Shown: piece by piece, positions 28,111 to 51,332 of the stretch
How the letters are laid out: each line of letters begins with the position of its first letter
Numbering within the stretch: position 1 is the stretch's first letter
Assembly (NCBI GenBank): GCA_965655095.1
Contig: OZ296657.1
Span: 13,268,001 to 13,332,000 of the forward strand
DNA length: 64,000 nt
Source of the DNA: Haplodiscus bocki
Taxonomy: Eukaryota
Reading direction: 5' to 3'
Notes under the pieces: generated by a model
What the model saw: only the letters and a program-made list of their open reading frames with translations
The model's database searches: none
What the model was told of the DNA's origin: nothing
Made by a program: the position numbers and the translations under genes

Positions 28111-29947
28111 TGTCGAGCGGGTGGTAGAATTCGGTTCGAAATTATGTTGACACAGACTTGTCATTTTCTTGGTGTGCGGCCGTTACTGATTAAATAAATT
28201 TAAGTCTCAAAGTTGCCCTACCGGCCCGCGTAAAGTATAGCGTGAATTCGCTAGCAAGGACTTAATGAATAGCTATTGGGTGGCTAGAGAATTTGTCAAA
28301 GAATTTGTTTAACGCAAGCAGTTCTGTTATATAAAGTAGGAAATTTATGGCTTGCATATAATACTTGTATTGTCAAACTTGCCAGAGATTTCACAAGGGG
28401 GGCGGTACTGTTTTAAGCGCAGAAGATTTGATTCAAATTCCTTTCTTTTCCAAAAACATTCAAAGTAAGAACATTAGCAACTTTACCGTTGAACTCTGTT
28501 TGATCAATATTTACCAACACTCAGAAATTTAATGCGGAATTATGAATCTACAATTTTTAACTGAAAAATGAAGAAAAAATTGTTGCACGCGCTTTTAATT
28601 GACGCGGAATTGAAACACAAAAATAACAGTAGCTCCAGTGATGAAAAGTAACATCTTTTCTAACCTTGTAGGAGATGAGTTGCCTTTGAGCACCATCTAT
28701 TTGCGTCGAGTTTGTACTAGAACGGAGAAAAAAATCATCGGTATTTTCTAGCAGTTTTTTTTAAAAAAGAACCTCTAAATCAGTTTTAGCTAAGACTACG
28801 TAATTCGCGTAATGAATCAACCTAGCGAGTTCTCCTAGGCCATTACATAGTTGTCAACCCGTAGAATAAAATCTAGGGATTTCGTTGAACGCTGGCTCAG
28901 TCTCGATCAGAAGGTTGACTTAATAACTCAGACACTGTGACTCGGTTTATGGCGTAGCAACCGTGCAATTTCTCCTAGGTTCAGGCAATTACTATCGGAT
29001 AACCAATGAACCTGATTCTGATTGAAATTGGGTTAGTAGGTAATTTCATCTAAGACTCAGCATCATTTCACTTCAATGGAGGCAGCCAATAAAAGCACAA
29101 CCCAGAACGGAAGGACCAAGAACCGATTTCTCTTAGGTATCAGGAAGTTTTGAAGAGTTCTTGTTCAGAGCAGTTTCCGTGGCAACTCTTGTTCAGAGTA
29201 TCTGCTGATGGACCCGATCTTAATTAACTAAGTTCATCTGGTGAGTTGTACTCTACCAGGGTAGTCTTTTTAGATACTAACAATCCGTTTTTTTCCCAAT
29301 GGTGGAATTAGGTTTATAGTTGATAGGTTTTTGGCTATATTTGAATCCTTTCCCAACGATTGGAAACTTCGAGTGTCTTGGAAAAGTTGTCTCTTTTCCA
29401 AAGATATAAACGTTACCAATGTCGGGAAGGCAAATTTCCGTGAAGGTTTCAAGTTTTGAGTTTCCAAATTTTTAGGAGAAGAGAATTGAGAATTTAGCAG
29501 TTTTTGCTTTCGGAGTTGGTAGTTGACGGTAGGCGATCAGGAGTTTTATAGTTTCTCCTGTTGGCGGCCGGCGCTCAGTCTTTCCGAACTCTCGTACCTT
29601 TCAAGGTTATGACCAAGTACGGTAAGCCTTACGCCAAGGAGCACCAAACAAGGTGATCCTCCAAAAAGAGTCAAAAATTGAAGTGTTAGGACGCAAGTTG
29701 TGACTTTTGTGAAGCAATGAAATCAAACTCCGAGAACGGGCGGTAACAAAGAGAAAAGCGTCGTTTCCATCGTCTGAGGCGTGCCAACGAAATTTTGAAG
29801 TTTCAAAATGTGCAATTCCAACTTTGTTCTCGCTCTCCAACAACTATCCTTTCAATCGGTAAGTTACTATTATTTTTCATTATAACTTTTATTATGTCAT
29901 TTCTAAATTTAGAAATAGCATTGTTTAGCGTTATGGCTAACGCAACA
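28111..29947 (-). repeat. 3' LTR (1837 bp)
   Basis: Direct repeat of 49488-51328; TGTCGAGCGG..CGCAACA; purine tract AGGGTGAG precedes it on the minus strand. Confidence 0.95.
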
Positions 29948-29988
29948 ACTCACCCTAGTAACAAAGTGTTGAAAATGATGGAGGGCCT

Positions 29989-30902
29989 CTACGGAAAAGG
30001 AAAGGGAAGAGAAGACTGGGTAGGTTGTTTTGGGGGGTCAAAAAAGGAAATATCAAGGTTACTGGTGTCATTGTAGAGATAGCCATCAGTTTCATTAAAA
30101 GTTTCGTATGTGGGAAGGAGCACGCGTGTCGCGTTGTTGGTAAGGTAGAGAAGTCAATTAAGGTTGGTCGGGTTGATTCTGTGGGCTCGATTGTTTGGCT
30201 CCAGGCATTAAGAGGGTTCAGTTGGTCACGCATTCTGATCTGGATTGGCTTTGAAACCGGCCGAGGCAGAATGTCATCATATTATCCTGCAGATATAGAG
30301 AGAGGGATGGAAGCCCATGTTCCGATAGCAGCGGCGAAACCGTAGGGGTACCAGTTCAAAGAAAAGTTTGAGCCGTATGGGTGAGAGCGAACGCTAGGGC
30401 TGCGAAGTTGGGTGATTGGAGCGTCTTCCCGCCCAGGTATCAGATACCATAATCTGGCGGAGTCAAACACCAGTTTTACAGAGGAAATCTTGAACAACAT
30501 GAAATTACAATTACTGTGCTCAAACTGGCAGATTTGGTCGCCCATAGTTGAGAGCTGAAATTGTAGTGAATTAAGCTTCAAAATGTATCTGCGCGTTTTA
30601 GAAGAACTACGCTTCTCTAAGACTCTAATTTTTTATGCGAGTGTCATTAATGAAGAAGACTTACTTGTTATTTGTTGGTCAAGTAAGTCGATCTGGGGCT
30701 GTAGAAGAGCGAAGTCTCTTTGGAGACGTTGGACCAGCTGCTTGAGGGTTGTCCGTTCTAATTCTTCTGTCTCCACATGCCTGCGCAACTGTTGTAGAAT
30801 AGAATATATCACAATTGCAGGTGATAGCGTTGAATATCTATCTATAGGAGGTGCTTGGGTGGGCAAAGTAAATTCCTCAGGTAATCCAAATAATCCAGGC
30901 AA
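29989..30902 (-). pseudogene. TRAF-like gene (coiled coil + TRAF-C/MATH domain) inside the LTR element
   Basis: Coiled coil LERTTLKQLVQRLQRDFALLQPQIDLLDQQI; then MLFKISSV..LRSPSVRSHPYGSNFSLNWYPYG..GTWASIPLSISAG*YDDILPRP..IRMRDQ..GYLYNDT..ISF, matching the TRAF MATH pattern (IWKI..SPPFYT..GY..LYLNG..GTHLS..GEYD.LLPWP..LLDQ..Y.KDDT). Confidence 0.8.
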
Positions 30903-31100
30903 AAAAATAACTCGTTTTCAACAAACTAGTAAAATCAAAAGTTTAGACAAAATTGAAATAAAAAACTGAAATTTAAATTATTACTGTGAATTAGCTGTTA
31001 TAGCTCGGAGCGGTGCAACAAGTCGCTGAGAGGAGAGGAGCGTAGTCCCGATGGTAATTTCTTGTCGGTGGCTATTCCAGAGGAGTAATTCCCAGGAAGA

Positions 31101-31604
31101 TTATTCCCGTTTCAATCTATAATGCAGATGAGGGTTGAAACGAAGGCATTTCACGACTCTCGCCAGTCGAGCGAAGTGTTCTCTTTTGTGTTGTCGGGAA
31201 ATTGTAAGTCTATCTCGGCTACTAGAGTTTTGGCTGGTGGGTCCTTGCAAACTGCGTAGTTTCCGTTTGGATCGGCCGCGAGCACTGCGGGAAGAAGAAA
31301 TCTTGGATCTAGCGTCTCCAACAGAAGAAGAAATGGTGGAAGGTTGTAATTGGTCACAAGTGACAGTAGGAGCAGAGCAAAACGAAGATAATCCTTTTGT
31401 TGTTGATACAGTGTCCGATTGTGCATCGGGTGGAGCAGGGTTTGACGGGACAGTTATTGAAGGAGGGGAGAAAAGAGTTACTACTGGCTCAACTGGCTGT
31501 CCCAAAGTTGATGGCGTCAAAGTTAGAAAGTCGAATTCCAGATCCGTCAAGACAGGCAATGGGTCGTCACTCTCCCTTGCTTGAAAATCTAAACACTGAA
31601 GCAT
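31101..31604 (-). CDS. Accessory ORF, Ser/Thr/Pro-rich with basic C-terminus (167 aa), unknown function
   Basis: Open 167-codon frame right after env, same strand; SRSARGRSKRKLR basic tract. Confidence 0.45.
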   Translation of the reverse strand: MLQCLDFQARESDDPLPVLTDLEFDFLTLTPSTLGQPVEPVVTLFSPPSITVPSNPAPPDAQSDTVSTTKGLSSFCSAPTVTCDQLQPSTISSSVGDARSKISSSRSARGRSKRKLRSLQGPTSQNSSSRDRLTISRQHKREHFARLARVVKCLRFNPHLHYRLKRE

Positions 31605-31620
31605 TAAACGAAAAAAATTG

Positions 31621-33747
31621 TTAAACAGGTGACAATGGTAATGTTACCGTTCTCATTGCAGAGTAGAGGTGCTTTTCTTTCTTTTTCGCACCCTCTTTCA
31701 CCTCATGCATATCCTTTTTCACACATGGACCTACCTCCATGTGTTCAACAGCGGTTAGCGCCGGAGCACGTGGGTTATACATGGAAGTTAACACAGTTGT
31801 CAATGCAATATTGTATGATGCACTCAGAAAGGTCTTACCAAACCCCAGAGTGGAACCGGTTAACTTATCTATTTCCATGTAACGCATGATCATAACTATT
31901 ACATCAATTAAAAACTTGATGAACAGAAAGAATGAAAAATAGATTCCGCAATGCTCAAGTACGTAAACTACAGGTCCAAATGTGTCCAAAAACGGATCTT
32001 TAAAATATCGAGCTGAAATAATCTTAACCACAAAGAACTCGGTTCATGAGGTATATTAGTGAAAACCGTCTGTACCTTCTTGGGCAGTGGTGTAGACAAA
32101 AAAAATTTGTGCGAAAATTTTAAGTACCATTCTCGAAGCCGCATTGATAAGGATGCTATCACAAAATCCTTTGCTCGTTACGAGTGTACATGCCTGCATC
32201 CTGTAATCCAGTAAAAGTGTGAGAAGCAACCGGGCTAATATACTGAGGTCCAAATATGGCAGGTTTGTCTTGATGTACGATACCAGGTGTTAGGGTATAC
32301 CAGGAATCTTCCTGATCCATGTCGAGTTGGAACAGGTTTTTGATGCGATCAGAACAGTTTTGAGTCGTAGCATGAGGATAGGTTTGTCGGGTTACAGGGT
32401 CAACGAATTGAATTTGTCCTCTGTAAAGAATCAGAATTTTATTATAGCACTGGTTCATTGTGTGAAGAGGCGAATAAACTTTTGGGCAAAGGTAGAGCCA
32501 TGCTACGCTTCCATATGTTTCCAGAAACATTGATCGGTTACCATTGAGCATGTAGCCAGCCAAACGAGGGTTTTCATGGCCTAGCATAAGATTAGTCAAG
32601 GTTTGAGTACGTTCTTGTTCGCATTGGTTTTGTAATAACTGTATTTCCGTCGCTTGGAGTAATCGCGAGCTTTGAAAAAATAAAAAATAAATCTTCGTTG
32701 CAAGGTGCATTTCATGGTAGGCAATCTTCAAATAACTATCGGGGTTCTCTGTTTGTAACTTTTGTGTTCCCTCTAACTGAGGATTGTGAGCGTAAAGTTG
32801 AAGGAAGTGGCCTTTCTCCTTTGGTCTCAAAGTTTGTAGGATCTTGGTTGCTCCAGTTTGATCGCGACCCAGGTTTCTCCCGATGTCAATGTCAGAACCT
32901 TCGCTTGAGCTATCCATATAAAAAGAATCATAGTCTGTGGGTTGGATAGATGTTGGCTTTCCGCAATGTTTTTGAGTGTTGTTCTTCACTTCAAATACGA
33001 ATTTAGAGCTAGAGTCGGCTCCACTGATAACGTAACACTTTCTTCCTTGTTTTACCAGGTTAACCTCCTCAGTTCAAACAATCGAGATTTGCGCAGTTGT
33101 CAGGATAGTCCCATATGTAAGGATAGGGGTCTAACGAAGTAGTTTCACATCCCAGTTCTTCCAAAGAGCATGGTAAAATTAAACCAGTATCAGATAAAAT
33201 TTTCCCGTTTTCTAACGTAACTTTCAGAGTGGTGGTTTGCATGTGAGGGAGGAAGGTGTCACGAGTGATCCAACCTTTACTGTTACATTCATTCCTGTAG
33301 TCAACTCTGGTGTCACTAGAGGTTTCTACAATAGGGTTTTTTGTGTCGAAAACAAAACTTATCGAAAGCCCAAGTAACGCTCGACATTGTTCTGGAGAGA
33401 TAACAATGTGACTTGTAATTCCTGCAAAAGTGTGATCAATGCTGCTATGATCATGGTGTCCACAATGCTTTTTTTTTCCGGACGTGTTGTAATTGGCTTT
33501 TTGTAACCTTTAATTCTTTTCTAAGATGTTTGGTGAAAAGGACAACTTTAGCCTTACTTATTTCCAATTCTTCAGGCATAATAAGGCTAGGTCGTACCTG
33601 ATTTATGACGTAAAGAGATTTATCAGTCATTTCACTGCAATCAAAATGAGCTGCATTCAGAGCATAGCCAACCTGATCTTCATCTGGAGTTAAATTGAAA
33701 GCTACTTCGACAGTATGTGCGACCATTTGGAAAAATATTAGCTTCAT
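31621..33747 (-). pseudogene. env: env: chuvirus-like class III fusion glycoprotein, frameshifted
   Basis: N-terminal hydrophobic stretch, AAHFDCS (YDC-type start), Cys-rich ectodomain, helix LQNQCEQER..LAGYML, AWLYLC..QCYNKILILYRGQIQFVDPVTR, C-terminal TM GIYFSFFLFIKFLIDVIVMI. Confidence 0.75.
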
Positions 33748-33999
33748 CGCTAGAATACATCTGTAGATGGTAGCTAAGAAAAAGGAACAGTAAAAAGGAA
33801 AGCCGTAATCTTCAAGCGGCAACTTTGTGGGCACGAATACAAAGCCGGAGCAAAAATTTTGTAGTAGGCGCTCCGCTACTGCGAAACGACACCGAGATTT
33901 CTTTAAAGGACGTCGGACTAGAACCGAGTGTCAAAAAGGGACGCCGGACTAAAACCAGTTCGTCAAAAAAGTGCCAAATACGGTTTTTTAACCTAGATT

Positions 34000-34915
34000 G
34001 AAGCTCTTAAAACTAGTCTTAGGACGTTTCGAACTAGATTGTCCAGTGCTGTGAGTCAGTGACTGACAATAGAGAATAAGTTATTTCACCAGTTGCTTTT
34101 GCAATGGGTTAAGTTTAGAGAAGAAAGGAAACTTGGTGAATTATACCAAAGACGACACGAGGTTGATCAATCTTTCTGTGTCTTGTTTGGTTGGTATTTT
34201 CTAAGTTGCGGGCTGAGCTTGTCGTAGATTTCTGACTGTTAATATAATCGGCTTTTCAACTTCTCCCCGAACAATTTTTGTTATTTCCAGATGGTTTTCA
34301 GTCGTAGGACGTTGCCAAACACACTTGAGGTTAAATTCGAACGTCATCAAGCTTCAACTGTTTTACTCGAAACTTTGGTTTTTAATCTTTATGTTTCCTG
34401 GTGGTGGATTGAATTAAAGGCTTTCAATAAAGGAGTAGTACTCTGACTCTTCAGGGCACTTGAAGTTAATTTTTTTCCAATCACCAATTCTTTCTGTCAA
34501 TTTATTGATTACTTTAGTTTCTGATTCAAAAGCTAAATGTTCAAACAGATAAGAATCATTCTTAATTTCCAAAAAAATTGTGGTCATTTGATCTGACTCT
34601 TTATTTCTGCTGGTGGAGGGTTTTTGTAAAGACCTTCAACAAAGGAATAATGTTCTGATACTTAAGGCACTTGAAAATTGTTTGTATTCCAGTTTCAACA
34701 GCCTCTGTTTTTACGTCGAAACTTTCTGTAGTTAAATCGTAGGTTATTGTTCTGAGGATAAAAGTACCTCCGTTAACTTTGAAGAATATGATTGTCATCT
34801 GATGGATAGATTACCCAAAAGATTTAGTGTTAAGTGTTTCTGTTGTCAGTCGTTGGATTGGGATTCAGTTGCGTTGAGTTGCTTCTTCCGGATTACTTCG
34901 TACCGTTGAGTGCAT
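34000..34915 (-). pseudogene. Decayed accessory ORF between integrase and env, unknown function
   Basis: Protein-like segments (MTIIFFKVNGGTFILRTITYD.., KNDSYLFEHLAFESE.., LKCVWQRP) broken by stops and frameshifts. Confidence 0.4.
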
Positions 34916-35309: not shown

Positions 35310-35765
35310 ATGGCAGAACCCCCGCCATTCGTCGTGGAGGTGGTAGGGTGGGAGAGGATTGACCCTCTCCCGGAGCTCCCACTCTTCCAATCCACGGCCA
35401 AAGAGTCGTTTGGCGGCTCTCTGTACATCTTCGGGGAGCCCGCCATCTTTTGGTTAGACGGTTGGAGAGCCTTTATGAGGTATCAGCGGGGCAATGATGA
35501 AGCACCAGTTAAAGAGGCCCCGGTGTTGGCAATGTTCCGGAGTTTCTTGGTCCGTTTTTATGGAGAAAACTGGGAAGCGACGGTCTTTTCCGACTCGGGG
35601 GAGGTGCTATTGTTCGAACTCCGAGCAATCCTTGCCGGGTGGCTCGGCCTCACAATGGAGCAGAGGGAAGAGTTTGCTCTGGCCATGGACGGTTGGCCAC
35701 AAGCTGTTTTCCGGGCGCGGGTTAGGTCCATGGCGAAAGCCGGGCGCTTCCGGTGCCTGGAGTGA
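35310..35765 (+). CDS. Antisense accessory ORF (151 aa), GC-rich, unknown function
   Basis: Open ATG..TGA frame MAEPPPFVVEVVGWERID..AGRFRCLE in a GC-rich island; preceded by pyrimidine tract + TAG (acceptor-like). Confidence 0.55.
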   Translation: MAEPPPFVVEVVGWERIDPLPELPLFQSTAKESFGGSLYIFGEPAIFWLDGWRAFMRYQRGNDEAPVKEAPVLAMFRSFLVRFYGENWEATVFSDSGEVLLFELRAILAGWLGLTMEQREEFALAMDGWPQAVFRARVRSMAKAGRFRCLE

Positions 35766-36375
35766 GCAACGCCTGCCGGCAGGGTTATCCTTCCCCGTTG
35801 GTTTGGCTCTTGTTATGTCCAAACCATTCCTCTGCATGGGAAGTATTCATTTGTATTAGGATTAAACATTCCAAAATTTGTGAGAAGAATACAACGTAAG
35901 TTTTAAAAACCAATGAAATTGCCATCTGTTATTTCGGGTAAGACGGTTGAAGTTGCTGGAAAGAGTTGAAGAGGAGATAGGTTAGTGTGAATGAAAGTCA
36001 GAAATTCCTCCATGATTGGGTCTAGGTGTTCAAGGGAATGATATCACAAAAGTTCATAAAGGCTTGCCATTGCAAGAGAATTACAATGGATTTGAATGTT
36101 ACATTTACGCTTGAGATCCTGTTGAAGTGTGATTGTAGAAGAGGTGTGAAACACACACGGACAATGTGTGTCGAATAACTCCAGTAAGCCTTAGTCAAAA
36201 GCACTGTGTCTAGGGCCAGATCGGACCAAAAATGAGTGACCGTCCACTTGCAGTTAGGGTATAATTTGTGACATTCAGGCATCTTGTGCTGAATATAACG
36301 AATGAAAAAGTAGTTAGTATGGATCTAAAGAAACAGAAGGTGGGCGAACACTGAGCAACAAAGAATTGTTGTCTC

Positions 36376-38150
36376 CTAAAGTTTATAACGCTGACGAGTG
36401 AGGGTACGAAGAACCGATTGAGAATTAGGATCGTTTGGCTGAGGTCTGTAATACCTTGGTTCTCTTGCTTTAGACTTGAGACTGTTCCGCAGAAATTGTT
36501 GTATCAGAGTAAGTGGTCTGGTTGCAGCCGAAGTTGACAGTTTTTCCTTCGCCGTCTCCTGTGAATGTTGTGATAGTTGTTCAGGTGTATTGGGTAGGGT
36601 TGGCGAGAAAAATTGAGGTGAGTCAACTCCCGAGTCACTGCTGGTGACTTTATCACGTTTGAGTGAAGTGATTGCCCGAGCCGTAGGTGATGGTTTGATT
36701 GGAAATGGAATGGGGTCTTCTGCGACTGGCTCAGTAAAGCTGTTCATTTTCCCAATTCTTTCTTCCAAGAAACGTTCATAAAAATCGTCATCATGTCGTT
36801 GGTCGTGTGGTACATATTCTTCAATCATAGCTGGTAATGATTCTTCTTTAGGATAGTATTCAACCAAATGGTTAGGGTGGACCGTTTGCATAACTGATCG
36901 GTCGTTGTAGTCTTGAATTTGATAGGTAGTACTAGTTATACGCTTGATAACGGCAAATGGACCCAGTCGTCGCTGTTGTAGTTTTTGACTTTTTGATAGG
37001 TCCTGCCGGTGGTTTTCGTAAAAAACTTTCTGACCGACGCCCAGACGGCGTCCTACTTTAAATTTGTTCCTGTATGCATGGGAACAAGCCCTCTGTTCGC
37101 GACATCTTTTCAAAGTAGGGGAAAAAATGTTTAAAGTCTCGCTCTCGATCTAACGGAGGGTGAGAAAGCTGTGGTTGAAGTAAATTCTGGAGAAGCTCAT
37201 TCTTCGTAGAGTTCTCGTCGTGAGTATGAGGAGGCAAGTCCGTACAGAAGTCGGAACAACATAAGTTATGTTTCTTTCGGTAGTGTCCCAATTTGACAGA
37301 CATGGGAATTTGTGGTTTGGCGTCGAAGACGATTTCGTAAGCCGTTTTACCAGTCGTGTAATTAACACTGGCATTGTGCTCGAACGCAAACTTTGGCGCG
37401 AGAGAAGCCCAGTTAGTGCCAGCATCGTTCAGAGAAATTCTCCAATAGCGAGCAATTTGCTGGTTCTGAGTCTCTACTTTGCCGTTTGTCTAAGGCGAGT
37501 GAGCTGTACGTGGTCGAAGGGTAATTCCCAACTCTTTAGTCCACTTGATGAAAACTGTGTTGAAAAAGGTTGTCACTCTATCGTTTATGATAGACTGAGG
37601 AATTCCAAATTGAAGTATCCATTTTCCGACTGCGGCACTGGTAGCTTGTGCTCCGGTATTAGTAACAAGATAGACCATTGGGAAACGCGAGAAAGAGTCA
37701 ACTAAGAGGAGACTATGGGTGTTCCGGTTACTCGGTGGATGGAAAAGTCCTTTATGGTCGATATTTATTGCGCAAAACGGTGCGGTATCACTTGGCCATT
37801 CTTCCAACGGTACCTCGTTAAGATGTTTAGGTTTTGGTTTATTATTCTGGCATGCAAGACAGTCAGCTGTTAAGGCCCAGATCCAGTCGAACATCCCTGG
37901 CCAATAATATAATCTTTTAGCGTTAGCATACGTCTTTGAGGCTCCCACGTGTCCTCTTATTAAAATGTCCCATGCGGAAGCAAGCTGAGAAAAGAGGTAA
38001 AGGTAAGCAGATTCGTAAGTTCCTTTCGGTTAATGTATCAGAAGGTTCATTATTACACAGAAGTTTGCCGTGCTCTTCTATGAGTAGTCGATCTAGCTCT
38101 TGGCCGTATCTGAGCAGACCTTTAGACTGTCAGTTTTCTGGAGCTTTTAG
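36376..38150 (-). pseudogene. pol: pol: integrase (HHCC, DDE core, GPF C-terminus)
   Basis: HVGASKTY..YYWPGM..CLACQ; NIDHKG..LVDSFSRF..FGIPQSIINDR..TNGKVE; RRLGPFAVIKRITSTTYQI. Confidence 0.9.
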
Positions 38151-38899
38151 GTCAGGAGAGATACCTCCTTGAATCCAGGAGCGTACAACACTGAGCATTG
38201 GATCTTTTGTGTTGCTCGTGTAATATGGTAGGAACATCAAGATAGAAAACCTTTACAACATCAACCAGATTGGTAATCAAATCCCGAGTTCTCAAATGAA
38301 GAGCAGCCGTAGCTGATAGTCTCTTTTTTGCGAAGAAGGTATCAGGATTACTAAGTACCGAGTCATGAGTTGCTCGAGCCTTGCATAGGCGGTAGTGATC
38401 GTTGGCATTGATTTCACAAGCGTAGGCATCTTCATGCTCGTTCATATCGCAATCTTCGTGAACTCTATGAGTTCGACGTGTGAAGAGGCTCCAGTGTCCT
38501 CGGTTCGTGCCGTCTCAGTCACATTGATAGAACTGTGTGTTCCAGTGGAGCTTCCAGATGGTGATAATGATACTGAAGACTGTGGTCTGCACGGCCGTCG
38601 GAACTGGTTGATAATTTCTCCCATTCGGAAACAGTCTGAAGCTAGCTGTACTGAAGACGTAGCAAGGTCAGTACTAATGGTATTAGTAGAAAAAATTTCA
38701 CCGTCAATATGCAATCGGAGTATCTTCTGATCTTTGCCTTGTTGGCAATGAATAGGGTAAAAATCGTTACACGTATCAGCTGTGGTATCTTCGTGGTTTA
38801 TTCTGTACGTTATCTGTTGTCCTTATTCGTCAAAAAACTGAATATCTTGTGGTAGTTTTTTGTGTTGAAGTTGGTGATTTTGATATTCGTCAATGATCA

Positions 38900-39542: not shown

Positions 39543-39547
39543 GGTAG

Positions 39548-40547: not shown

Positions 40548-40696
40548 TGGGTCGTACCCGGTGGGAGTGTAAGACCGGGACAATCCCTGGTCCGGCTAAA
40601 GCAAGCTTTTTTGCCTAGACCGTGCATCAAAAATCAGTTTAATATTGGAGGTAGGCGGTGCCTACCATGCCAGATATTAAGCTGACAAGAACAGAT
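40548..40696 (-). ncRNA. U2: U2 snRNA 3' portion (nt ~38-186) downstream of the retrotransposon insertion
   Basis: ATCTGTTCTTGTCAGCTTAATATCTG..Sm site..stem-loop IV CCCGGT-CTTACACTCCC-ACCGGG..GACCCA. Confidence 0.93.
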
Positions 40697-43600
40697 GAAA
40701 TATTTGAATTAGTATAAATAAAACAAAATATACGAGGTAAGTTTTTTTTCAAACACTGGTTAGAATCATACATTTACAAAAGTAAATATCAAGAAAAATG
40801 GGGTTTGAGTTTTTGTCAGAAAAAGTTTGATTAATAGATTTGCGGAATTCCTGTCAGATGTTCTGCGGAGATGTTTCGGGAATGGTGGATGACAAGAGCT
40901 GCGGCTTTGCGAGTAAACGTTGTGATGTCCTTCTTGCTGCGGATGAACTTCTGGAGCACAGGGTATGAGGATCTCGAAAAACTGCCCAGAGTACCCAGCT
41001 GGATTGTGGCGATTGAGGTAGAAAATCCACTGACTTCATAGGCTCGTTTCAAGTTCTCATATTTCACTTGCATCTGCTGAGCATTCCATTGGAAAGTTTC
41101 TTGAGATTCAGCAGATACTTTGATGTCAATGATGGCAGCTTCTTTGGTCTGTTCGTCCTGCACAATGATGTCCGGCTGCATGTTTCCAAAACGTTGCTCC
41201 TTCAAAATTCTTAGCCGATGAGGAAACTGAGAGGCTAGAAGGTCTCGGACATCGTTGTGCCGTTTAATGATTTTCTTCCTCATCACGCTGCAGTTACTTA
41301 ATGTATGATTTAGGGTCTCACGGTCGGCTTGGCATTGACGGCAGTTTTGATTTTCAGGAAGATGATTCCACACAAAGTTTGATCTTACAGGGACTAGATT
41401 TAGCCTTGCGCGGTGGATGAATCTGAAGTCGCAGAGTTTTGTATGAAAGTTGAAGACTGCTTTAGTTGTTTGCGGTGTTTCGGCCAAAGTCCTCCAGAAT
41501 CGTCCTTGATTCGGCGCCCGTTGTATTTCTTTCAAACTCTGTTTCTGCAGGTATCGGGTAAGAACAGGCCAAGGGTCTCGGTACTTGGCGCCTTCTATAG
41601 AAAGCGTGACACTGTCCTCCAGCATGGTCAGTTCGACGTCTGTGTCCAGGTACTTTGCTAGTCTTCGTAAGCTTCTGGCTGTTTCCTTGATTGTATCACC
41701 GTACCCTCTCACGCTACCACTGTTGATTGCGTCTATAGCTTCTTGCAATGTTTTGTCGTCGAGTAACACGCGCTTTAGGTATTCGCCAAATGGTCCTGTT
41801 GTATTGAGGCTTCGGATGAAAGTTTGGAGAGTCATTTTGCTTTTGGCGAGAACTAGATCTGGCAGACCGGGACCACCATACATGCGATGAAGATGCAGGT
41901 ATGCCGTAGCAGCCCTTTCGGGTAGGTACAAAAGTCGTTTGGTCATTCTCCGAAATTGTCGATTCATCTTCTCCAGTTGGGTCATTGTGCTGTTAGAGTT
42001 CTCAAGCAAGTGGAACAGCATCGGGTAGATCTTTATTCGCAGTGCATGCAGTTTTTGCATTGGGGTCAACTCTGAGCATTCAATTAGTTCAGCCATGCGG
42101 AATGTTTTGTCGAAACACGAATCCAGTCCTTGGATTGTTGAGGGGAACGCTTCTGTACCAAGGTACTTGTATGCCCTGTCATCTTGGACCTCGGGAATGG
42201 ATGTTCCGTCAATGTCCAAAGTCAGAGACCTCAGATTCGCTACACCACACTTCTTTGCATTGAAAGAAAAACCAAGACGTTTTGCCAATTTCACTGTTCT
42301 GTTGAAAATGTCTTGGACCTCACTTTCTTCGTCTATGATGATGGCCAAATCATCCATATATCCAAGACAAACTGAGTTGGCCGACGTTGCTTCTTTGAGT
42401 ACGGGGTCCAAAACCAGATTAAAGAGGAGACCACTTAATGGGCAGCCCTGCTTGACACCGCGTGTGACTGGTACTGGTCCTGCGAGTTCTTCTCCTTCAA
42501 CGCTCACAGGCGTTGTCTTGCACCCCGCATATCTTATCAGCTCCACTATCCACTGGGGACAGTTGCACTGCTTTAACGCCTCGAAGATTAGCTTCTGGTC
42601 TACACTATTGAATGCATCTGACAGGTCCAGATAGATTACTGTCTTTTTCTTCTTCAGAGCGTTCCCAACTGCCAGTGTGTTTTCAGAGACACCACGTCTT
42701 CCAAAAGCAGCTCTTTGGCAGAAACCAATGCCTTTATTTACTTCAAGCCATTTGCTCAAGCGTTTGTAGAGAATGGAGGCGAGTAGCTTGTATGACACGT
42801 TTGACAGGGCTATTGGTCTAAAGCAGCGAAGTTCTTTTTCTTGACCAGCTGTGTACTCCTCTGGCTTCTTGAAGAGCATCATACTATTGTATGATTTCCA
42901 GCAGGACGGAGTTAAGCTGCTATAACCCATCGCATGTAGACCTTCAGTAAAATTCTTTGCGAAAACTTTTTCTTGTCTCACTTTGTCATAAGTCCATCCA
43001 TCTGGTCCTGGGGCTGAGTTTTTGTGTTCTAGTGCTCGTTCAACTTCGTACACTGTGAAACGACGGGCTAGGTCTTCTCGTCCCTCATTGCATGGCAGCC
43101 AGTGTCTTGTTGTCAAAGATGATGCCCCGTTGTTGTTTGGAGCACTCAACTGCTGTAACAGGCCATAGCGAAGATCTATCTCATCGACTTGACAAATGAT
43201 TTCAGGTACAAACTCGATGCGTTTCAATGCCGCTTTCATATCTTTACTGTAAAGTTTTTGTAATTCTGCAGCAGTCATCCTTGATTGCTGATGATGTGTC
43301 CTTCTCGCAGTGTTCCGTTTCATCTTTTCTTTCGGAGGCAGCAAAGCATTCAACCATTCGTCACATTCTTCGCCTTGCCAATTCAGATCGTTCTCATGTC
43401 TTTCATAGCTGTCGGGATTGACGCTTTCAGCATCGGTGTCATCTAGCTCTGCCAAAGGGGTACTAGAGACTGTACTAACAGATAGCAAGTCATCTGCTGT
43501 TTCGGCCACCGCCACAGTTTCTTCTATCGGTAACAAGGGCAAAGGAGGAGCAGGGGGTGCTGGTGGTAGTGATGATGACGCCGGTGGAGGAGACAGCCGC

Positions 43601-44107
43601 GACTTGGATGCAAGAGTAAGGGTTACCTTGCATTTACGTCTGTGACTACTCAAAGCCTTCTGAGTCCCAAACGAGCTGTTGCAACTGGGACATGGGTAAG
43701 TAGTCACCTGCACCGACGGGTCCCCGAAATGAGAACCTTGATGTGTTGTAGCTTTTCTGCGGTCACTTGTCAGGAACTTACAGTAAATACACTCAAAAAC
43801 CAACTCGTTTGCTTCTCTGCATCCAGGATCGCTCTGTCTGCAGACCCTCGAGTGTCGAAAAACGTCTCTCTTGAACGCGGACTCTTTGATGGCTCGGTCA
43901 CACGCCACACAGATTAGTGGAAAAGCCACAGGGAACGGCACCACTGCAGTTTGGCCATCGAAAATGAAGCTCGACATCTGCACGGCTCGACACGTGAGGT
44001 TGAAGCTGTCTCACTGCTCCTCCTGTCTTCTTGGACACTTCCTGCTGTCGTCTTGCTGTAGCGTCAGGAAGTAGGCTCGTCTTGACTTCAAGCTCGACAA
44101 AGAACAC
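40697..44107 (-). mobile_element. U2-targeting RLE non-LTR retrotransposon (Utopia, NeSL group)
   Basis: Single ORF inserted in U2 after nt 37/38 (GTAGT(A)|TCTGTTCTT), same orientation, no poly(A). Confidence 0.9.
40831..43977 (-). CDS. Intact non-LTR polyprotein (~1048 aa): three N-terminal Zn fingers, RT, CCHC, restriction-like endonuclease
   Basis: CVAC..H..C, CIYC..H..H, CPSC..H..C; SAPGPDG, FRPIAL, LDLSDAFNSV, GVKQGCPLS, YMDD, YKYLG; CRQC..ETLNHTLSNC, RHN, QPDI..IIDIK. First ATG at 43977 (the track starts at GTG 43983). Confidence 0.95.
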   Translation of the reverse strand: MSSFIFDGQTAVVPFPVAFPLICVACDRAIKESAFKRDVFRHSRVCRQSDPGCREANELVFECIYCKFLTSDRRKATTHQGSHFGDPSVQVTTYPCPSCNSSFGTQKALSSHRRKCKVTLTLASKSRLSPPPASSSLPPAPPAPPLPLLPIEETVAVAETADDLLSVSTVSSTPLAELDDTDAESVNPDSYERHENDLNWQGEECDEWLNALLPPKEKMKRNTARRTHHQQSRMTAAELQKLYSKDMKAALKRIEFVPEIICQVDEIDLRYGLLQQLSAPNNNGASSLTTRHWLPCNEGREDLARRFTVYEVERALEHKNSAPGPDGWTYDKVRQEKVFAKNFTEGLHAMGYSSLTPSCWKSYNSMMLFKKPEEYTAGQEKELRCFRPIALSNVSYKLLASILYKRLSKWLEVNKGIGFCQRAAFGRRGVSENTLAVGNALKKKKTVIYLDLSDAFNSVDQKLIFEALKQCNCPQWIVELIRYAGCKTTPVSVEGEELAGPVPVTRGVKQGCPLSGLLFNLVLDPVLKEATSANSVCLGYMDDLAIIIDEESEVQDIFNRTVKLAKRLGFSFNAKKCGVANLRSLTLDIDGTSIPEVQDDRAYKYLGTEAFPSTIQGLDSCFDKTFRMAELIECSELTPMQKLHALRIKIYPMLFHLLENSNSTMTQLEKMNRQFRRMTKRLLYLPERAATAYLHLHRMYGGPGLPDLVLAKSKMTLQTFIRSLNTTGPFGEYLKRVLLDDKTLQEAIDAINSGSVRGYGDTIKETARSLRRLAKYLDTDVELTMLEDSVTLSIEGAKYRDPWPVLTRYLQKQSLKEIQRAPNQGRFWRTLAETPQTTKAVFNFHTKLCDFRFIHRARLNLVPVRSNFVWNHLPENQNCRQCQADRETLNHTLSNCSVMRKKIIKRHNDVRDLLASQFPHRLRILKEQRFGNMQPDIIVQDEQTKEAAIIDIKVSAESQETFQWNAQQMQVKYENLKRAYEVSGFSTSIATIQLGTLGSFSRSSYPVLQKFIRSKKDITTFTRKAAALVIHHSRNISAEHLTGIPQIY

Positions 44108-44137
44108 CTGATCTCAGCCAAAAGGCCGAGAAGCGAT
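44067..44137 (-). ncRNA. U2: U2 5' end (nt 1-~30) followed by a diverged U2-like leader
   Basis: ATCGCTTCTCGGCCTTTTGGCTGAGATCAGG-TGTTCTTTGTCGAGCTTGAA..GCCTACTTCC. Confidence 0.85.
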
Positions 44138-44235
44138 AAAACAAAAATATTCTATCTCCACATATAATTCACAAATGTAACTTCCATCATGCAGTTTTTC
44201 AAATTCGCACAATCTCAGCTACCCCAGCTATGACC

Positions 44236-44590
44236 GCTTTTCAAATTTATTGCTTTTGCCCGCATTGGAATTATCCTTCTGAATATCGTTGCAACCAACT
44301 TTTGAACTTCCGAGATTTTTTGCTGGAAAAGGTCGTTATTTGTCTGATCATTCAATTTATGCTCGATACCTAATTTTTTGATTTTCTTTTGTGTTTCATA
44401 ATTTTGTATGCTTTTCCCACTCAAAATCTCTGTTTCATCAACATTAACAGATAGTTGAGTGGCATCGCAAAAACACTTTACTCTGTCAAATAAGGTTTCC
44501 AGAGATCTACTTTTAACGTAACAAGTTTTATCATCAGCATAGGCTGAAACTTTAGTGACAAAATTGGTGTTTATAAAAGGGTCGTTATAG
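44236..44590 (-). pseudogene. L1/Tx1-like non-LTR RT fragment
   Basis: KVSAYADDKTCYV..FCDATQLSVNVDETEIL..IKKLGI. Confidence 0.75.
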
Positions 44591-44597
44591 GGTAGGC

Positions 44598-45330
44598 AAA
44601 ACAACGTGTCCTAAAACGTTCACTCTTTGAGGAAGAAGAATGTTTTTTCCTGAGCGGGTTTCAGACCGGCTTCCCTCATTAAATTGTGGTACTCGTGGAT
44701 ACTCAAGAGCATTTCTCCTTTGTTTTGTGATTGCATTATAGTGTCGTCTATGTAGGTTATTGTTGTCTTTTTTTTTAATCAGCGGCTCGAAATGGATTGT
44801 CATTAGTCGGCTGAAAAACTTAGGTAATCCACATAGTCCATAGAACCCTCCGATATATGTGTACTGTCTACCACCAATGATAAAGCTAGTCAGCTTCTGG
44901 GTTTCAGGACTCAGTGGTACTCGATGGTATGTGCAGGATAGACCACTGACAGAAAAGAATTTTTCGTTTACTCAAGATCATTTGTACAGGTTATAGAGGT
45001 CACGAGTAGTTAGTAAGGTCAGTGACAGATTTTAGGAATCGAGCTTCTATGACTTGTTTCATATAGTCGCTTTTGTGCATCAGAATGATGCGGTTAACAA
45101 ACAGTGATCTCATTTTGTCATTGTCTCCCATTTCTCGAATAATAATTTCGTCATTTAGTTGAGTTAAGGGTTTCTCCAGTTTTTTTTAAGTGCAGTGGTA
45201 CTTTGCTAGGTGTCTGCTTTTTCAATTCTACACTTGGTTTCAACTATACATGAAACTTTTGACGAATTTTACCAACGTCGAACTTGTGTTGCGAGTAGAC
45301 ATACCTAGAATCAAATAACATGTCGATAAG
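44598..45330 (-). pseudogene. pol: pol: RT N-terminal part
   Basis: YSQHKFDVGK, KVPLH, YHRVPLSPETQKLTSF, ITYIDD, FLGHV; resumes at 39542. Confidence 0.9.
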
Positions 45331-45629
45331 GAGAGTCACCTTTTCATCGGTAATATCAGAGAACTGGAAGCCAAATTCCTTCATGTATTGCACAAGTTCT
45401 TTCGGCTGGTATTGTAAATAATGTTCAATCAGATGATTGTTATAATCTTTATCCCGAAATGTAAGAAACTGTTCATCGCATGTAGGCTGACAAGATTTAG
45501 CTTCTCTAGTGAAATCCGTTTCCAAGTCTCTGCCGTGCAATAGAACTCTTCGCTGTACCTTTCGATTTCGTCGTCAGCTTAGAAGTCGAGGTCTCCTTCT
45601 GAGGACAAGGCATGTACTCCATTTTTTTC

Positions 45630-46056
45630 TAAAGTGTAAACTACTATTCGAATATTTGAGTCGGCGAAAAAATCCTTAAGTAGTTTTACAACATCTTGCC
45701 AGTTCATTTGATCAAGTCCGCATCCAATTGTAGGAATTGCGATGGCCGAGATTCCATACAATCGTGCATGGGACTTCATTTCCTCTAGAGTTAAAGATAA
45801 GGTACGTAGGTTAGGTTCTTCAGAATAATAAGTTTTCGTCACCAAATTGTAGATATATCGGTTCCCAACGTGGTCCCATAATTGAAAGGTTTGCCCTGTC
45901 AATAATTTTGTCCGTCTGCATGCATCTCGAAGTCCAAGAATCTGTTGAGAGCAGGTCGGCGAACCCTTTGCTCATCTTAGCATCGGCTGAGATGCAAAGC
46001 CCAATGGAGTGTGGTTGTTGCAATGTTGAGTCTTTGGTACCAAGGATAATTTGTAA
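45630..46056 (-). pseudogene. TARG1/OARD1 (Poa1p-like) macrodomain within pol, one frameshift
   Basis: SIGLCISADAKMSKGFA..RYIYNLVTKTYYSEEP..LEEMKSHA..IAIPTIGCGLDQMNWQDV..IRIVVYTL aligns by eye with human TARG1 (SLAHCISEDCRMGAGIA..RYIYYLITKK..LEAMKSHC..MPRIGCGLDRLQWENV..ITVYTL). Confidence 0.9.
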
Positions 46057-46499
46057 ACAATCATCTGGAGATTGCGCGGGAATTTTTGAGTGTAAAAGAA
46101 AACAGTCATTGCATTTGTTGTCACTAGTTATTATGGCATTGGTTAACTCATAGGGGTTCCTGATTTGGTACTTTGGTTCTTTTTTATTGACTACTTCCAA
46201 AAACGAAAATCCATTTCGTCCTCTAGGGAGCCTTATCTGACGGTTTTTGTTAGTTTCGATCAGTATTGGGAGAGTGGGTTCAGGCTGAGTGCATATGATA
46301 TCAACAAAAAAAAGACCAGTCGACACCGCTTCCCTGTTGGGTTGAAAAGTTGAACCAGGAGGGATGAGAGACTTAGGATCTCCAGGCGAGTACTTCCAAC
46401 ATCTTGCTCTTTTAGCGTCAACGTGCATAGTATAAAGCAACCGGTTTGTTAGAATTCGAGAAACATGAGGAAAGCTTTTGTTTTGGTGAAGATTTCCAT

Positions 46500-46840
46500 A
46501 ACAGAAAGTTTTTGGAGGCTGCCATAGTTCATTACCGGGTGAATTGAAATGAATTCCGGAAGTCTGGTTCTAACAGAAGTCCATCCCGAGGAGGTATTAA
46601 GTTTTCGTTTTCGGAATCCAGACAGTTAGAGGAAATGAATATTCACCATTAGGGTCTTAAGTGAACTCTATAGTGGCGTAACCGATCATTAGTACTATTG
46701 GCTCGAATAAGTTTTGGTTAATTTATTGATTCTCTGCACCATTTTAGGATGTGGGAATTGTGAAATCTCCCAGAAAGTCCGATAAATGATGATCGAGCAG
46801 GAAACTCCTGTATCCAGCATGAATTCAATTTCTAGTCCAC
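46500..46840 (-). pseudogene. pol: pol: aspartic protease
   Basis: IEFMLDTGVS at 46801-46830; LLGMDF at ~46575-46595. Confidence 0.85.
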
Positions 46841-46986
46841 TATCTTTTTGAGCTTCTCCGGTGGCGAAATAGAAAATATTAAAGCTAAGTGTTCAACTCC
46901 TGGTGCCATCGGAGTCAGACCTCGGAGACCTCATCAGTTTAACGGGCAGAGGTCGGACAATGCATTGACTGAATCGTCTGTTGTGG

Positions 46987-48380
46987 TCAATCGAACTGCA
47001 TGAGAACTAGGTTGGTCATTCGTTTGCGAAAATCGCTGTTCATAGGGGACAAAACTACCGGATTCTTGACTGCTGGATCGTCAAAATATTTAATTATTGG
47101 GCCTACTAGACCGCCAGGGCTGAAACTGCCGGCTCGGCTGTGAGTCTCGTCTTGGGCCAGAAGGAGAGCATGGATTGGTTCCAATATTTTGCCAGGTTCC
47201 TCTCGTCGGCGTTCCGGGAGAACCATTCCTGTAGTAGTTGTCATCATTCCTGTTAGCGAACTGATTCTGGTATCAATCAAACGATGGTCCACGACCAGAA
47301 CTGAATGAATTGTTTCTGGACGGATTACCCCAAATAATTCCTACGTAGAATTGTGTAGTTTCTTCGTAAGTCGCTTGTTGTGCGTCGGTTGTGTCCCTTC
47401 TAGCTTGATTTATGCTTCCAGCATTGTTATGAATGAACTTTCCAGATCCATGACTAGGTCCTCGGCGTTTGTTGTAATCGGTCCTGAATGTTAAGCGTTT
47501 TTGAGCCATCTTCCCGTTCTGTACTTTTTTGATTTCTTCATCCCGAATTTTCTTCCTACACCAGCTTGGAGTGTGTCCGTTGGTGTGGCAGTAATTGCAA
47601 AACTGCGTGGCGTTTTGTCGGCCCTTTTGGTTAGGGTCGGGTTGTCGTGTATTCTTCAGTGCAATTTCTCGATTGTCCTGTAGCCCGGAACGCAGATTTT
47701 TCATTTCTTGGGCCAGTGAGGCCAGTTGGATTTTGGTCTGTTCCTCATCATTGAGGAAGTTCGAAGAGACTTGATAACTTACGTATCGTTGGATGATTCG
47801 TGTGGAGAAATTGTTCCATTTTGCGTTAGGATTTTCCATCAAGTATTCTTGTGCTTTTCGTTGTAAGTATCTTGGACGAAGTCCTCGTAGAGTATAATCA
47901 ATGTATCAATGTCGCCTTTGTCTCCCTTGTGCTTGACGTGCTGCAGCTCTATCACCTTCTGCAATACCTTTCATGTCAGCAGGCCATCCTTTGTCGACAA
48001 TATTCTTTATTCGATGTAAAAAAACTTCTGATTTCTTCTCCGTCGCCTCGCACACAGTGTTCTACTTCCATTCTGTGACGGAATTTAATCCATTCGTCGG
48101 AAAAATTTGTTATGAATTGTTCCCGTGTGGCTGCCCAACTGGTGGCATTCTCGATATTATTTTCATACCACTCTGCCGCTGGTCCTCGGAGTATAGAGGA
48201 AAAAAGTGACTTTTTGCGAAAAGTATAACTAACCAAATCATCAAAATCCGCGGGTGCATCACCTAATGCGAAGTTTATTTTCCTTTCTATAAGTTGGACA
48301 AAAGATTCAGCGTCCTGGTCGGGATCAGTGCCAGAGAAACTTGTCTAAGGCTAAATCGGGGTATGCGAGATGACTGCTAG
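46987..48380 (-). pseudogene. gag: gag, frameshifted
   Basis: FSGTDPDQDAESF..LRGPAAEWY..; zinc knuckle CNYCHTNGHTPSWC (CX2CX4HX4C). Confidence 0.9.
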
Positions 48381-48474
48381 CCAAAATTTTATTGCAGTCA
48401 ACTTTGTAAGACAGGTGATCCATTAATCCACCATAGACATGAAGTTGGAACTCGTTTACGTGGGGTTCTGGAAA

Positions 48475-49450
48475 CTAGTAGTAATTCAGTAGCGCCGTTG
48501 CAACAGATTTCAACAATGGATGAGGTTCGTCTATTTCTAATAGTTGAGAAGCTGTAGGACTCCTTTGTTGAGGAATTTCTACACGTATCCAAAAATCAAA
48601 AATGAAAGTCCACTTTAGGTATATGATATTACCGGTAAAAATTTCGTTGATTGTAGTGATGGCCCATGAGCAGTTAAACGGTTGTATTTCGTCAAATCCG
48701 TCATCAGCGAGAGTATTCCAAACAACTGAGATTTGGTTGGCCGGATGTGGCATTCAAATGTGACTGTTGAGTTCTTTAATGAGTTGCAATAGTTGAACTA
48801 CAGATAAAAGATATACGGGTCCCAAAATTAGAATAAAGATAGCAAGAGATAAGAAGTACAGGATTATTATCAAATTGCGTCTCATCCGAAAAAATTGGGA
48901 TAAGAGGATACCAAAAGAAATGAATTTTTCTGAGATGGGGAGGTCCGCGTTTCCGAAACGATCTCGTACGAGGTTACCCAAAGACGAAAGATCATAAGTT
49001 TTGTAGGATGTTGCGTCCCGAATTGCAAATAGGAGGTGATATAATTTGCCGTTTAAATCACGTCCCTTTTTTTGATGAGCAGGATAGGTAAATCGTCACT
49101 CGTCAAATATTAAGAATCACAAAGCTGTCCAATTATGATTCGTTCCAATCGTATCACAGCGAAAAGATAAGGTGGTGTCAAAAGTAGTGCCACTACTGTG
49201 AAAAAGGAAAAATAGAGCGCCACAGTTAAGCCACGTCCTATCCAAGGTGGGTCTAGTTAAACTCTCAAGTGATCACTCGGAGAAATCCGGTGTCTATTTA
49301 TGGAATTCAGTCTCACCAGCACCACGAACAAAGATCCAATTGAGATTATACCATTTACAGTTAGGAAATTGACCAAAACTGAAACTAACAGGCCAGAAGA
49401 AAGTAGCACAATAGACTTGAAAAACTCGTGAACTTCACTCGTAGCATCAT
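48475..49450 (-). pseudogene. Pre-gag membrane-protein ORF(s), decayed
   Basis: Several hydrophobic segments including two homologous 30-aa TM motifs; ORFs 48754-48981 and 48475-48753 are in frame (TGA-ATG). Confidence 0.45.
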
Positions 49451-49467
49451 CAAAGAAAAAAGAACTG

Positions 49468-49485
49468 CCTCACTGGTCGCACCAA
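49468..49485 (-). other. Primer-binding site
   Basis: TGGTGCGACCAGTGAGG starts ~3 nt after the 5' LTR; tRNA species not identified. Confidence 0.7.
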
Positions 49486-49487
49486 TT

Positions 49488-51328
49488 TGTCGCGCGGGTG
49501 GTAGATTTCGGTTCGAAATTATGTTGACAAAGACTTGTCATTTTCTTGGTGTGCGGCCGTTACTGATTAAATAAATTTAAGTCTCAAAGTTGCCTTGCCG
49601 GCCCGCGTGAACAAAGTAAAGCGTGAATTCGCTAGCAAGGACTTAATGAATAGCTATTGGGTGGCTAGAGAATTTGTCAAAGAATTTGTTTTACTCAAGC
49701 AGTTCTGTTATATAAAGTAGGAAATTTATGGCTTGAATAAAATACTTGTAATGTCAAACTTGGCAGATATTTCACAAGGGGAACGGTACTGTTTTAAGCG
49801 CAGAAGATTTGATTCAAATTCCACTCTTTTCCAAAAATACTCATAGTAAGAACGTTAGCAACTTTACCATTCAACTCTGTTTGATCAATGTTTATCAACA
49901 CTCAGAATTTTATTACGGAATTATGAATCTAAATTTTTTAACTGAAAGTTGAAGAAAAAATTGTTGCACGCGTTTTTAATTGACGCGGAATTGAAACACA
50001 AAAATAACAGTAGCTCCAGTGATGAAAAGTAACATCTTTTCTAACCTTGTAGGAGATGAGTTGCCTTTGAGCACCATCTATTTGCGTCGAGTTTGTACTA
50101 GAACGGAGAAAAAAATCATCGGTATTTTCTAGCAGTTTTTTTTAAAAAAGAACCTCTAAATCAGTTTTAGCTAAGACTACGTAATTCGCGTAATGAATCA
50201 ACCTAGCGAGTTCTCCTAGGCCATTACATAGTTGTCAACCCGTAGAATAAAATCTAGGGATTTCGTTGAACGCTGGCTCAGTCTCGATCAGAAGGTTGAC
50301 TTAATAACTCAGACACTGTGACTCGGTTTATGGCGTAGCAACCGTGCAATTTCTCCTAGGTTCAGGCAATTACTATCGGATAACCAATGAACCTGATTCT
50401 GATTGAAATTGGGTTAGTAAGTAATTTCATCTAAGACTCAGCATCATTTCACTTCAATGGAGGCAGCCAATAAAAGCACAACCCAGAACGGAAGGACCAA
50501 GAACCGATTTCTCTTAGGTATCAGGAAGTTTTGAAGAGTTCTTGTTCAGAGCAGTTTCCGTGGCAACTCTTGTTCAGAGTATCTGCTGATGGACCCGATC
50601 TTAATTAACTAAGTTCATCTGGTGAGTTGTACTCTACCAGGGTAGTCTTTTTAGATACTAACAATCCGTTTTTTTCCCAATGGTGGAATTAGGTTTATAG
50701 TTGATAGGTTTTTGGCTATATTTGAATCCTTTCCCAACGATTGGAAACTTCGAGTGTCTTGGAAAAGTTGTCTCTTTTCCAAAGATATAAACGTTACCAA
50801 TGTCGGGAAGGCAAATTTCCGTGAAGGTTTCAAGTTTTGAGTTTCCAAATTTTTAGGAGAAGAGAATTGAGAATTTAGCAGTTTTTGCTTTCGGAGTTGG
50901 TAGTTGACGGTAGGCGATCAGGAGTTTTATAGTTTCTCCTGTTGGCGGCCGGCGCTCAGTCTTTCCGAACTCTCGTACCTTTCAAGGTTATGACCAAGTA
51001 CGGTAAGCCTTACGCCAAGGAGCACCAAACAAGGTGATCCTCCAAAAAGAGTCAAAAATTGAAGTGTTAGGACGCAAGTTGTGACTTTTGTGAAGCAATG
51101 AAATCAAACTCCGAGAACGGGCGGTAACAAAGAGAAAAGCGTCGTTTCCATCGTCTGAGGCGTGCCAACGAAATTTTGAAGTTTCAAAATGTGCAATTCC
51201 AACTTTGTTCTCGCTCTCCAACAACTATCCCTTCAGTCGGTAAGTTACTATTATTTTTTATTATTACTTTTATTATGTCATTTCTAAATTTAGAAATAGC
51301 ACTGTTTAGCGTTATAGCTAACGCGACA
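49488..51328 (-). repeat. 5' LTR (1841 bp)
   Basis: TGTCGCGCGG..CGCGACA (7-bp terminal inverted repeat); direct repeat of 28111-29947. Confidence 0.95.
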
Positions 51329-51332
51329 ATAC

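Follow-up and report, generated by a model that had tools for sequence, protein, structure and literature searches.

Accessory genes are a feature of the lentiviruses and of HTLV-1, in which one such gene, HBZ, is antisense. Several elements of comparable scale or content have been described. Envelope genes (env) of the gB type are widespread in Ty3/gypsy elements across animal phyla, the "ancient errantiviruses" (Chary and Hayashi, PMC13524379), and foamy-like endogenous retroviruses of fish reach 17 kb (PMC6431247). Burro1, or GYPSM1, of Schmidtea mediterranea is a giant env-bearing Gypsy element with a MATH_TRAF_C domain, accessory open reading frames (ORFs) and a dUTPase-like insert between protease (PR) and reverse transcriptase (RT) (PMC6431247). 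Here, we describe a Ty3/Gypsy element in Haplodiscus bocki, found on the minus strand at positions 28111-51328 of a 64,000-nucleotide stretch, the window, of contig OZ296657.1 (GCA_965655095.1, positions 13,268,001 to 13,332,000).

The element in the window has decayed. It belongs to a high-copy, env-bearing Ty3/Gypsy lineage and is a new, unusually complex variant among such elements. Besides gag, a pol with the order PR-macrodomain-RT-RNase H (RH)-integrase (IN) and a class III-type env, it has about ten further ORFs. One of these is antisense, and a RING-less TRAF gene comes last. These roughly ten accessory genes are family traits held by purifying selection, and by analogy with complex retroviruses they likely blunt host defenses.

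Results

Sequence alignment delimits the element by paired long terminal repeats (LTRs) with TG...CA ends, 97.6% identical over 1842 columns (K2P distance, 0.023). The target-site duplication (TSD) is 4 bp, ATAC on both flanks, and matching 4-bp TSDs are legible in several sibling copies; coordinates are collected in Table 1. The 14-nucleotide core of the primer-binding site has 2474 exact matches in the genome, against 31 for a reversed control, while a search of the genome with one pattern found no cognate tRNA gene. No long polypurine tract lies upstream of the 3' LTR, the junction being marked by a short G-rich run with pyrimidine-rich sequence upstream. Inside pol sits a nested insertion, a decayed RT-bearing repeat that itself hosts a non-LTR element. 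The open 1059-amino-acid (aa) frame of the latter (40831-44010, minus) encodes zinc fingers, an RT and a C-terminal nuclease-like end, and is flanked by 132-bp direct repeats (39635-39766 and 44104-44235); an 84-bp repeat (39548 and 40613) lies beside it. Because the insertion is missing from siblings, the native length of the element is 23,218 - 5,061 = 18,157 bp.

Genes were annotated by mapping the natural long frames of younger copies, in order, onto the window. Window frames match Pfam Retrotrans_gag, Macro, RT_RNaseH, Integrase_H2C2/rve and Monjiviricetes_fusion (E = 2.6e-19), as well as TRAF-mep_MATH when stops are read as X (E = 1e-5); the protease and RT domains have Pfam matches in sibling frames that are collinear on the window. 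Gag, pol, env and TRAF are all broken here, pol having 12 stops and nine pieces relative to a younger copy, env 3 stops and four pieces, and TRAF 2 stops and two pieces. Younger copies hold long frames: 724 aa for env, 202 for the basic ORF, 308 for TRAF, 154 for the antisense ORF and 124, 73, 74 and 112 for smaller ones, with an open pol stretch of 1212 aa. Three of the extra ORFs precede gag (preTM1, preTM2 and pre119) and five lie between pol and env (post124, anti154, s73, s74 and s112), followed after env by basic202 and the TRAF gene, here called vTRAF.

The two TG...CA LTRs, the short TSD and the order of gag followed by PR-RT-RH-IN are Ty3/Gypsy (Metaviridae) traits. The best PDB match of RT-RH is Ty3 (E = 1.8e-37, compared to 3.9e-22 for foamy virus), a measure of similarity rather than of position in a tree with named clades, and the Retroviridae traits of a retroviral-type RT and a class I env are absent. 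A preliminary description of the window had proposed a single TSD-bounded element of about 18 kb with a pre-gag transmembrane (TM) region, gag, PR-macrodomain-RT-RH-IN, a class III env, an antisense ORF, a basic ORF and a TRAF-MATH gene, all of which Pfam, mapping and hydropathy bear out. Its "two or three unknown ORFs" are real, including the antisense one, but were an undercount of the five between pol and env and the three before gag.

That description also proposed a lineage with shared accessory genes, to be sought in sibling copies and assessed by the ratio of nonsynonymous to synonymous substitution (dN/dS). Copies in the 1.5-Gb genome came from the best 40 of 385 candidates for the 3' region, 134 of 3895 for the TRAF protein and 40 of 2617 for gag, and the comparison covered 30 loci selected via the 3' region and 20 selected by gag alone. 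The 3'-picked set holds TRAF by construction, and one of its rows (L014) takes gag and pol from a neighboring element. Siblings share 77-86% identity with the window copy, and their LTR pairs are 74-99% identical in the first set (13 pairs) and 90-99.4% in the second; 14 of the first 18 align over gag-pol and the 3' genes, with the nested insert absent. Among the 20 gag-picked copies, basic202, env, s112 and s74 were each present over more than half their length in 19, TRAF, s73 and anti154 in 18, and post124 in 17. Private insertion of the extra genes is ruled out by this presence in gag-picked copies (TRAF, 18/20).

When 20-30 copies per gene were each compared with a single younger copy and the results pooled (postinsertion decay included), dN/dS was 0.09-0.19 for gag, PR, RT and RH (RT, 0.10) and 0.13-0.34 for nine extra ORFs, while an LTR control gave 0.69-0.95 across its six frames. 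In the ORF frames, 0.1-0.7% of codons are stops, versus 1.6-14% in others. For anti154, the annotated frame has 0.5% stops and a dN/dS of 0.23, compared to 0.42-2.5 in the other five frames; the lowest ratio and fewest stops thus mark the antisense strand as the coding one. A doubtful 65-aa ORF between pol and env in other copies (dN/dS, 0.57) is absent from the window copy.

Searching the genome for Pfam TRAF domains (best 150 of 2967 scored) revealed a sister family, family B, of which four copies were fetched. Its TRAF, of 433-441 aa, is 36% identical to that of the window family, with pol 73% and env 55% identical. Family B carries, in order, three pre119 paralogs, gag, pol with the macrodomain, an antisense ORF, two ORFs of about 73 aa, an s112-like ORF, env, a basic ORF and TRAF, and its anti154 homolog is likewise antisense. 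The same gene order in so divergent a family indicates that the accessory set is old and has been kept. The lineage with shared accessory genes therefore stands, on two sister families, gag-picked copies and purifying selection.

Several observations concern copy structure. Family B (L140-L148 and L155-L156) was recently active, with terminal repeats 99.7% identical, and many of its copies have a TRAF of 433-441 aa. In two of them, a terminal repeat of 3-5 kb or more encloses the basic ORF and TRAF, so that TRAF occurs twice, about 18 kb apart. Internally deleted copies of the window family exist (L071 and L112). At L111-L112, a deleted copy, with gag joined to the TRAF end, adjoins a host zinc-finger TRAF gene on C8. 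At C4:103366643-103403792 (L002-L010), about 20 tandem units spaced about 1.8 kb apart each contain the TRAF region of the window-element family.

The env of a younger copy matches Pfam Monjiviricetes_fusion (PF24664) at E = 3.9e-39 and, by hydropathy, has a signal peptide and a C-terminal TM segment. A separate env ORF with signal peptide, ectodomain and TM segment, homologous to class III fusogens, is therefore present. In the env comparison, 1426 representatives match at E ≤ 0.001; there were no relatives among the viral contigs searched and seven in metagenome contigs, two of them with pol.

The macrodomain in Pol is assigned to the TARG1 class, the best PDB match of a sibling frame being human TARG1 (4j5q; E = 3e-20), with the next class at 1e-3. 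Positions equivalent to the TARG1 Lys and Asp, which we take to be catalytic, are kept, K in 28/29 copies and D in 26/28. The host genome has 31 PARP-domain matches, about ten of them in open frames of 1,700-2,500 aa; some of these PARP-domain frames may sit in mobile elements. The Pol insert between PR and RT (dN/dS, 0.26) has no Pfam match to a dUTPase fold and only chance-level PDB profile matches, so that its presumed dUTPase-like character was not confirmed by either search.

The PDB matches of vTRAF are the TRAF domains of TRAF1 and TRAF5 (5e1t and 6ku5; E = 2e-9 to 4e-9). The N-terminal RING and zinc fingers typical of TRAF2-6 are absent from the 308-aa vTRAF and from the 436-aa ORF of family B. 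In a 12-row tree (midpoint root, one partial row), element TRAFs group with two host loci, L115 and L116, with support of 99/100, apart from three other host TRAFs. At both loci the exons are bounded by splice sites, and no element genes lie in the vicinity. They share a YPYG motif with the TRAFs of both element families and a longer N-terminal motif with that of family B. A host origin of vTRAF, as kin of two intron-bearing host TRAFs, is supported by these sequence relationships, and the grouping of an intronless gene with them fits a single capture of a spliced host message. The preliminary description spoke of several captured host-type genes; this holds for TRAF and the macrodomain, the only two of traceable host-type origin.

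The remaining accessory ORFs are less readable. The predicted structure of pre119 (pLDDT, 80) has four strands and two helices; its model has no match among viral models at E ≤ 0.001, and its best PDB matches (Z, 4.9) are mixed, several being PH-like. The model thus provides neither a fold assignment nor proof of a new fold. Alignment of post124 to pre119 is weak (E = 0.02), as is the profile match of s112 to pre119 (E = 6e-4; probability, 28%), and s73 and s74 match neither the pre119 nor the s112 profile. Pfam searches gave no match for the small pre-gag and pol-env ORFs, PDB profile searches with s73/s74 and pre119 gave chance-level matches only, and Pfam and profile searches gave no sequence match between the accessory genes and retroviral ones. 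Weak homologs of basic202 lie after env in distant elements (L105-L107 and L110; E = 0.0009-0.02); L106 has two tandem basic and coiled-coil ORFs there, weakly related to basic202.

Table 1. Features of the Haplodiscus bocki element (window coordinates)
Feature	Position	Strand	Description	dN/dS
5' LTR	49488..51328	-	1841 bp; ATAC TSD at 51329-51332	
Primer-binding site	49468..49484	-	17 nt, TGG start, adjoins 5' LTR	
preTM1	49260..49442	-	61-aa hydrophobic ORF; hydropathy peak 2.7	0.33
preTM2	48763..48885	-	41-aa hydrophobic ORF	0.33
pre119	48397..48753	-	Small protein, predicted beta-meander plus two helices (model)	0.14
gag	46937..48384	-	Pfam Retrotrans_gag and mapping; broken here; about 482-485 aa in younger copy	
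pol	36376..46990	-	PR, unassigned insert of ~150 aa, macrodomain, RT, RH, IN with long tail; broken, split by nested insertion	
Macrodomain	45630..46010	-	TARG1/OARD1-type (assigned), inside pol between PR and RT; Pfam Macro on window	0.26
Nested insertion	39543..44603	.	Private to window copy; missing from siblings	
post124	35918..36282	-	Small ORF after pol	0.26
anti154	35310..35765	+	Antisense, acidic, 154 aa; open in window copy	0.23
s73	34593..34798	-	Small ORF; paralog of s74 (42% identical)	0.24
s74	34366..34587	-	Small ORF; paralog of s73	0.34
s112	34009..34347	-	Small ORF	0.31
env	31621..33770	-	Class III-type fusion glycoprotein; broken here	0.15
basic202	30990..31577	-	Ser/Pro-rich, then basic; conserved C-terminal domain of ~75 aa	0.29
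vTRAF	29992..30914	-	Coiled coil and TRAF-C/MATH, no RING or zinc fingers; broken here; 308 aa in younger copies	0.13
3' LTR	28111..29948	-	1838 bp; ATAC TSD at 28107-28110	

Elsewhere in the window, a 438-aa open frame at 62687-64000 (minus) presumably represents part of a DNA polymerase B of the protein-primed type. It is accompanied by tandem repeats of 60 bp and by inverted repeats (61940-62435), and the region is possibly a Polinton-like end. Long degenerate inverted repeats (6743-8990 and 14563-16855; 65-74%) around an AT-rich 10-kb region likely belong to a large DNA transposon, and a tandem repeat at 24886-25129 has 3.6 copies of a 61-bp unit.

Discussion

We consider it reasonably probable that this lineage spreads between cells by means of its class III-type env and counters host defenses with its accessory proteins. 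Reverse transcription would be tRNA primed and integration would generate a 4-bp TSD, as in Ty3. The macrodomain, either released from Pol by cleavage or packaged together with RT, may strip PARP-added ADP-ribose from the proteins or nucleic acid of the element. The C-terminal half of a TRAF, coil and MATH without introns, would derive from a single capture of a host mRNA, before the two families split. Like TRAF1 or a RING-less TRAF2, vTRAF may then join host TRAF trimers and dampen or redirect stress, death or immune signaling. The small ORFs, in part putative duplicates of one gene for a small beta-meander protein, could act as binders of host proteins.

A number of points weigh against this reading. 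All dN/dS values were computed against a single reference and therefore depend on one another. The structural model of env comes from a shallow alignment and has a pLDDT of only 28, so the class III label is taken from the Pfam match. Neither macrodomain nor TRAF occurs in the distant env relatives L106 and L110, which have gag-pol-env or pol-env, so these genes are dispensable for such elements. No RING or zinc-finger exons were found at L115 and L116 within the 18 kb fetched, and the donors may therefore themselves be RING-less. Positions that we take to be receptor binding in TRAF2 are altered in the vTRAF alignment, which argues against vTRAF being a simple decoy for canonical motifs. TRAF1, which lacks a RING, is described as resembling a dominant-negative TRAF2 and forming heterotrimers, and also as able to boost signaling (PMC6305416), so that any vTRAF effect could go in either direction. 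Finally, the link to NF-kB immunity made in the preliminary description finds no support, as a search of the host genome, run without a positive control and liable to miss a domain split among exons, gave no match to a Rel/NF-kB domain.

This missing Rel match and the altered groove of vTRAF would also suit another account, which we regard as possible but unlikely, in which the element uses the extra genes for its own life cycle or to keep its host cell alive (RNA export, trafficking, budding, or survival of stem or germ cells) rather than for immune blocking, the macrodomain being a reader of ADP-ribose or handling the PARP marks of DNA repair at integration. The basic202 homologs after env in distant elements are as expected of a core regulatory gene, and the extra domains of Burro elements have been read as apoptosis and ubiquitin tools (PMC6431247). 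However, the catalytic-equivalent positions of TARG1 are kept, the host has many long PARP frames, and the small ORFs have been duplicated and have turned over between families, which fits conflict.

Somewhat more doubtful is the suggestion that env no longer yields infectious particles and that the lineage is intracellular, with env working only within or between neighboring cells. All copies examined come from one genome, and two (L071 and L112) are internally deleted; against this, env has a dN/dS of 0.15, keeps its signal peptide and TM segment, and is 55% identical to the env of the sister family. A view of the extra ORFs as passengers, whether inserted privately or carried along neutrally, is very improbable and largely refuted, for although the window copy is broken and the 65-aa ORF evolves at 0.57 and is missing here, most gag-picked copies (18-19/20) carry the extra ORFs, dN/dS is 0.13-0.34 with stop depletion, and the order is conserved in family B.

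Beyond the favored reading, of spread through env and defense-directed accessory proteins, we raise tentatively a broader one: that a Metaviridae lineage has independently reached and passed lentiviral complexity, with infectious class III-enveloped particles, at least ten accessory genes including an antisense one, a repeated small protein of undescribed fold, a dominant-negative TRAF of host descent and an eraser of ADP-ribose carried in Pol. If true, this would suggest that an animal possibly without NF-kB restricts its retroelements by means of PARPs and TRAFs. The accessory genes under selection in a retroelement reveal which defenses it encounters in its host. Two of those described here have readable biochemistry, ADP-ribose removal and TRAF signaling, and TRAF genes of the donor type lie in the same genome, making the pairings directly testable. 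The element class, found at thousands of places in the 1.5-Gb genome, also shapes that genome.

Comparison with known systems places the parts of the element in familiar company. In sequence, the macrodomain shares with human TARG1/OARD1 (4j5q) its class and the catalytic-equivalent Lys and Asp, with the difference that it is embedded in a retroelement; vTRAF shares coil and MATH with TRAF1 and TRAF5 (5e1t and 6ku5) and, like TRAF1, lacks the RING, whereas its groove residues differ. With complex retroviruses, the element has in common a large genome in which pol and env are surrounded by many small ORFs, and a single antisense gene, but its RT is Ty3-like (2e-37 versus 4e-22 for foamy virus) and its env is not class I. 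Like the ancient errantiviruses (PMC13524379), it is a multicopy LTR-gag-pol-env element of an invertebrate-type host with a Ty3/gypsy RT, and its class III-type env likewise has a signal peptide and a TM segment. Judged by the published description, the window element adds about ten ORFs, a Pol macrodomain and TRAF. The terms macro, TRAF, accessory and acoel do not occur in the main text of that paper, and "macro" appears only in species names in those places of its supplements that were viewed.

The preliminary description suspected that the combination was undescribed. No account of the whole gene set, the antisense gene or the repeated small protein was found in the literature searched, with Repbase and GyDB outside the search, but two of its components had been published. 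Since gB-type env in Ty3/gypsy is already known (PMC13524379), the env part is not new, and TRAF/MATH in an env-bearing Gypsy element is known from Burro1 (PMC6431247). Burro1 is likewise a large env-bearing Gypsy element with MATH_TRAF_C and accessory ORFs, and its dUTPase-like insert lies where the window element has its unassigned insert. However, as described there, Burro1 exceeds 30 kb and encodes a polyprotein of about 4,900 aa with an env of the gypsy/F kind in frame between gag and pol, together with BIR, BCL2 and Ubl. Pfam gave no matches to these three domains in window-family frames, and the element does not belong to the Burro/GYPSM1 group. The window element has TRAF as a separate last gene akin to host TRAFs, a class III-type env after pol and a TARG1-type domain in Pol. 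TRAF in the two elements looks like independent capture, and together they suggest that env-bearing Gypsy elements have captured TRAF repeatedly.

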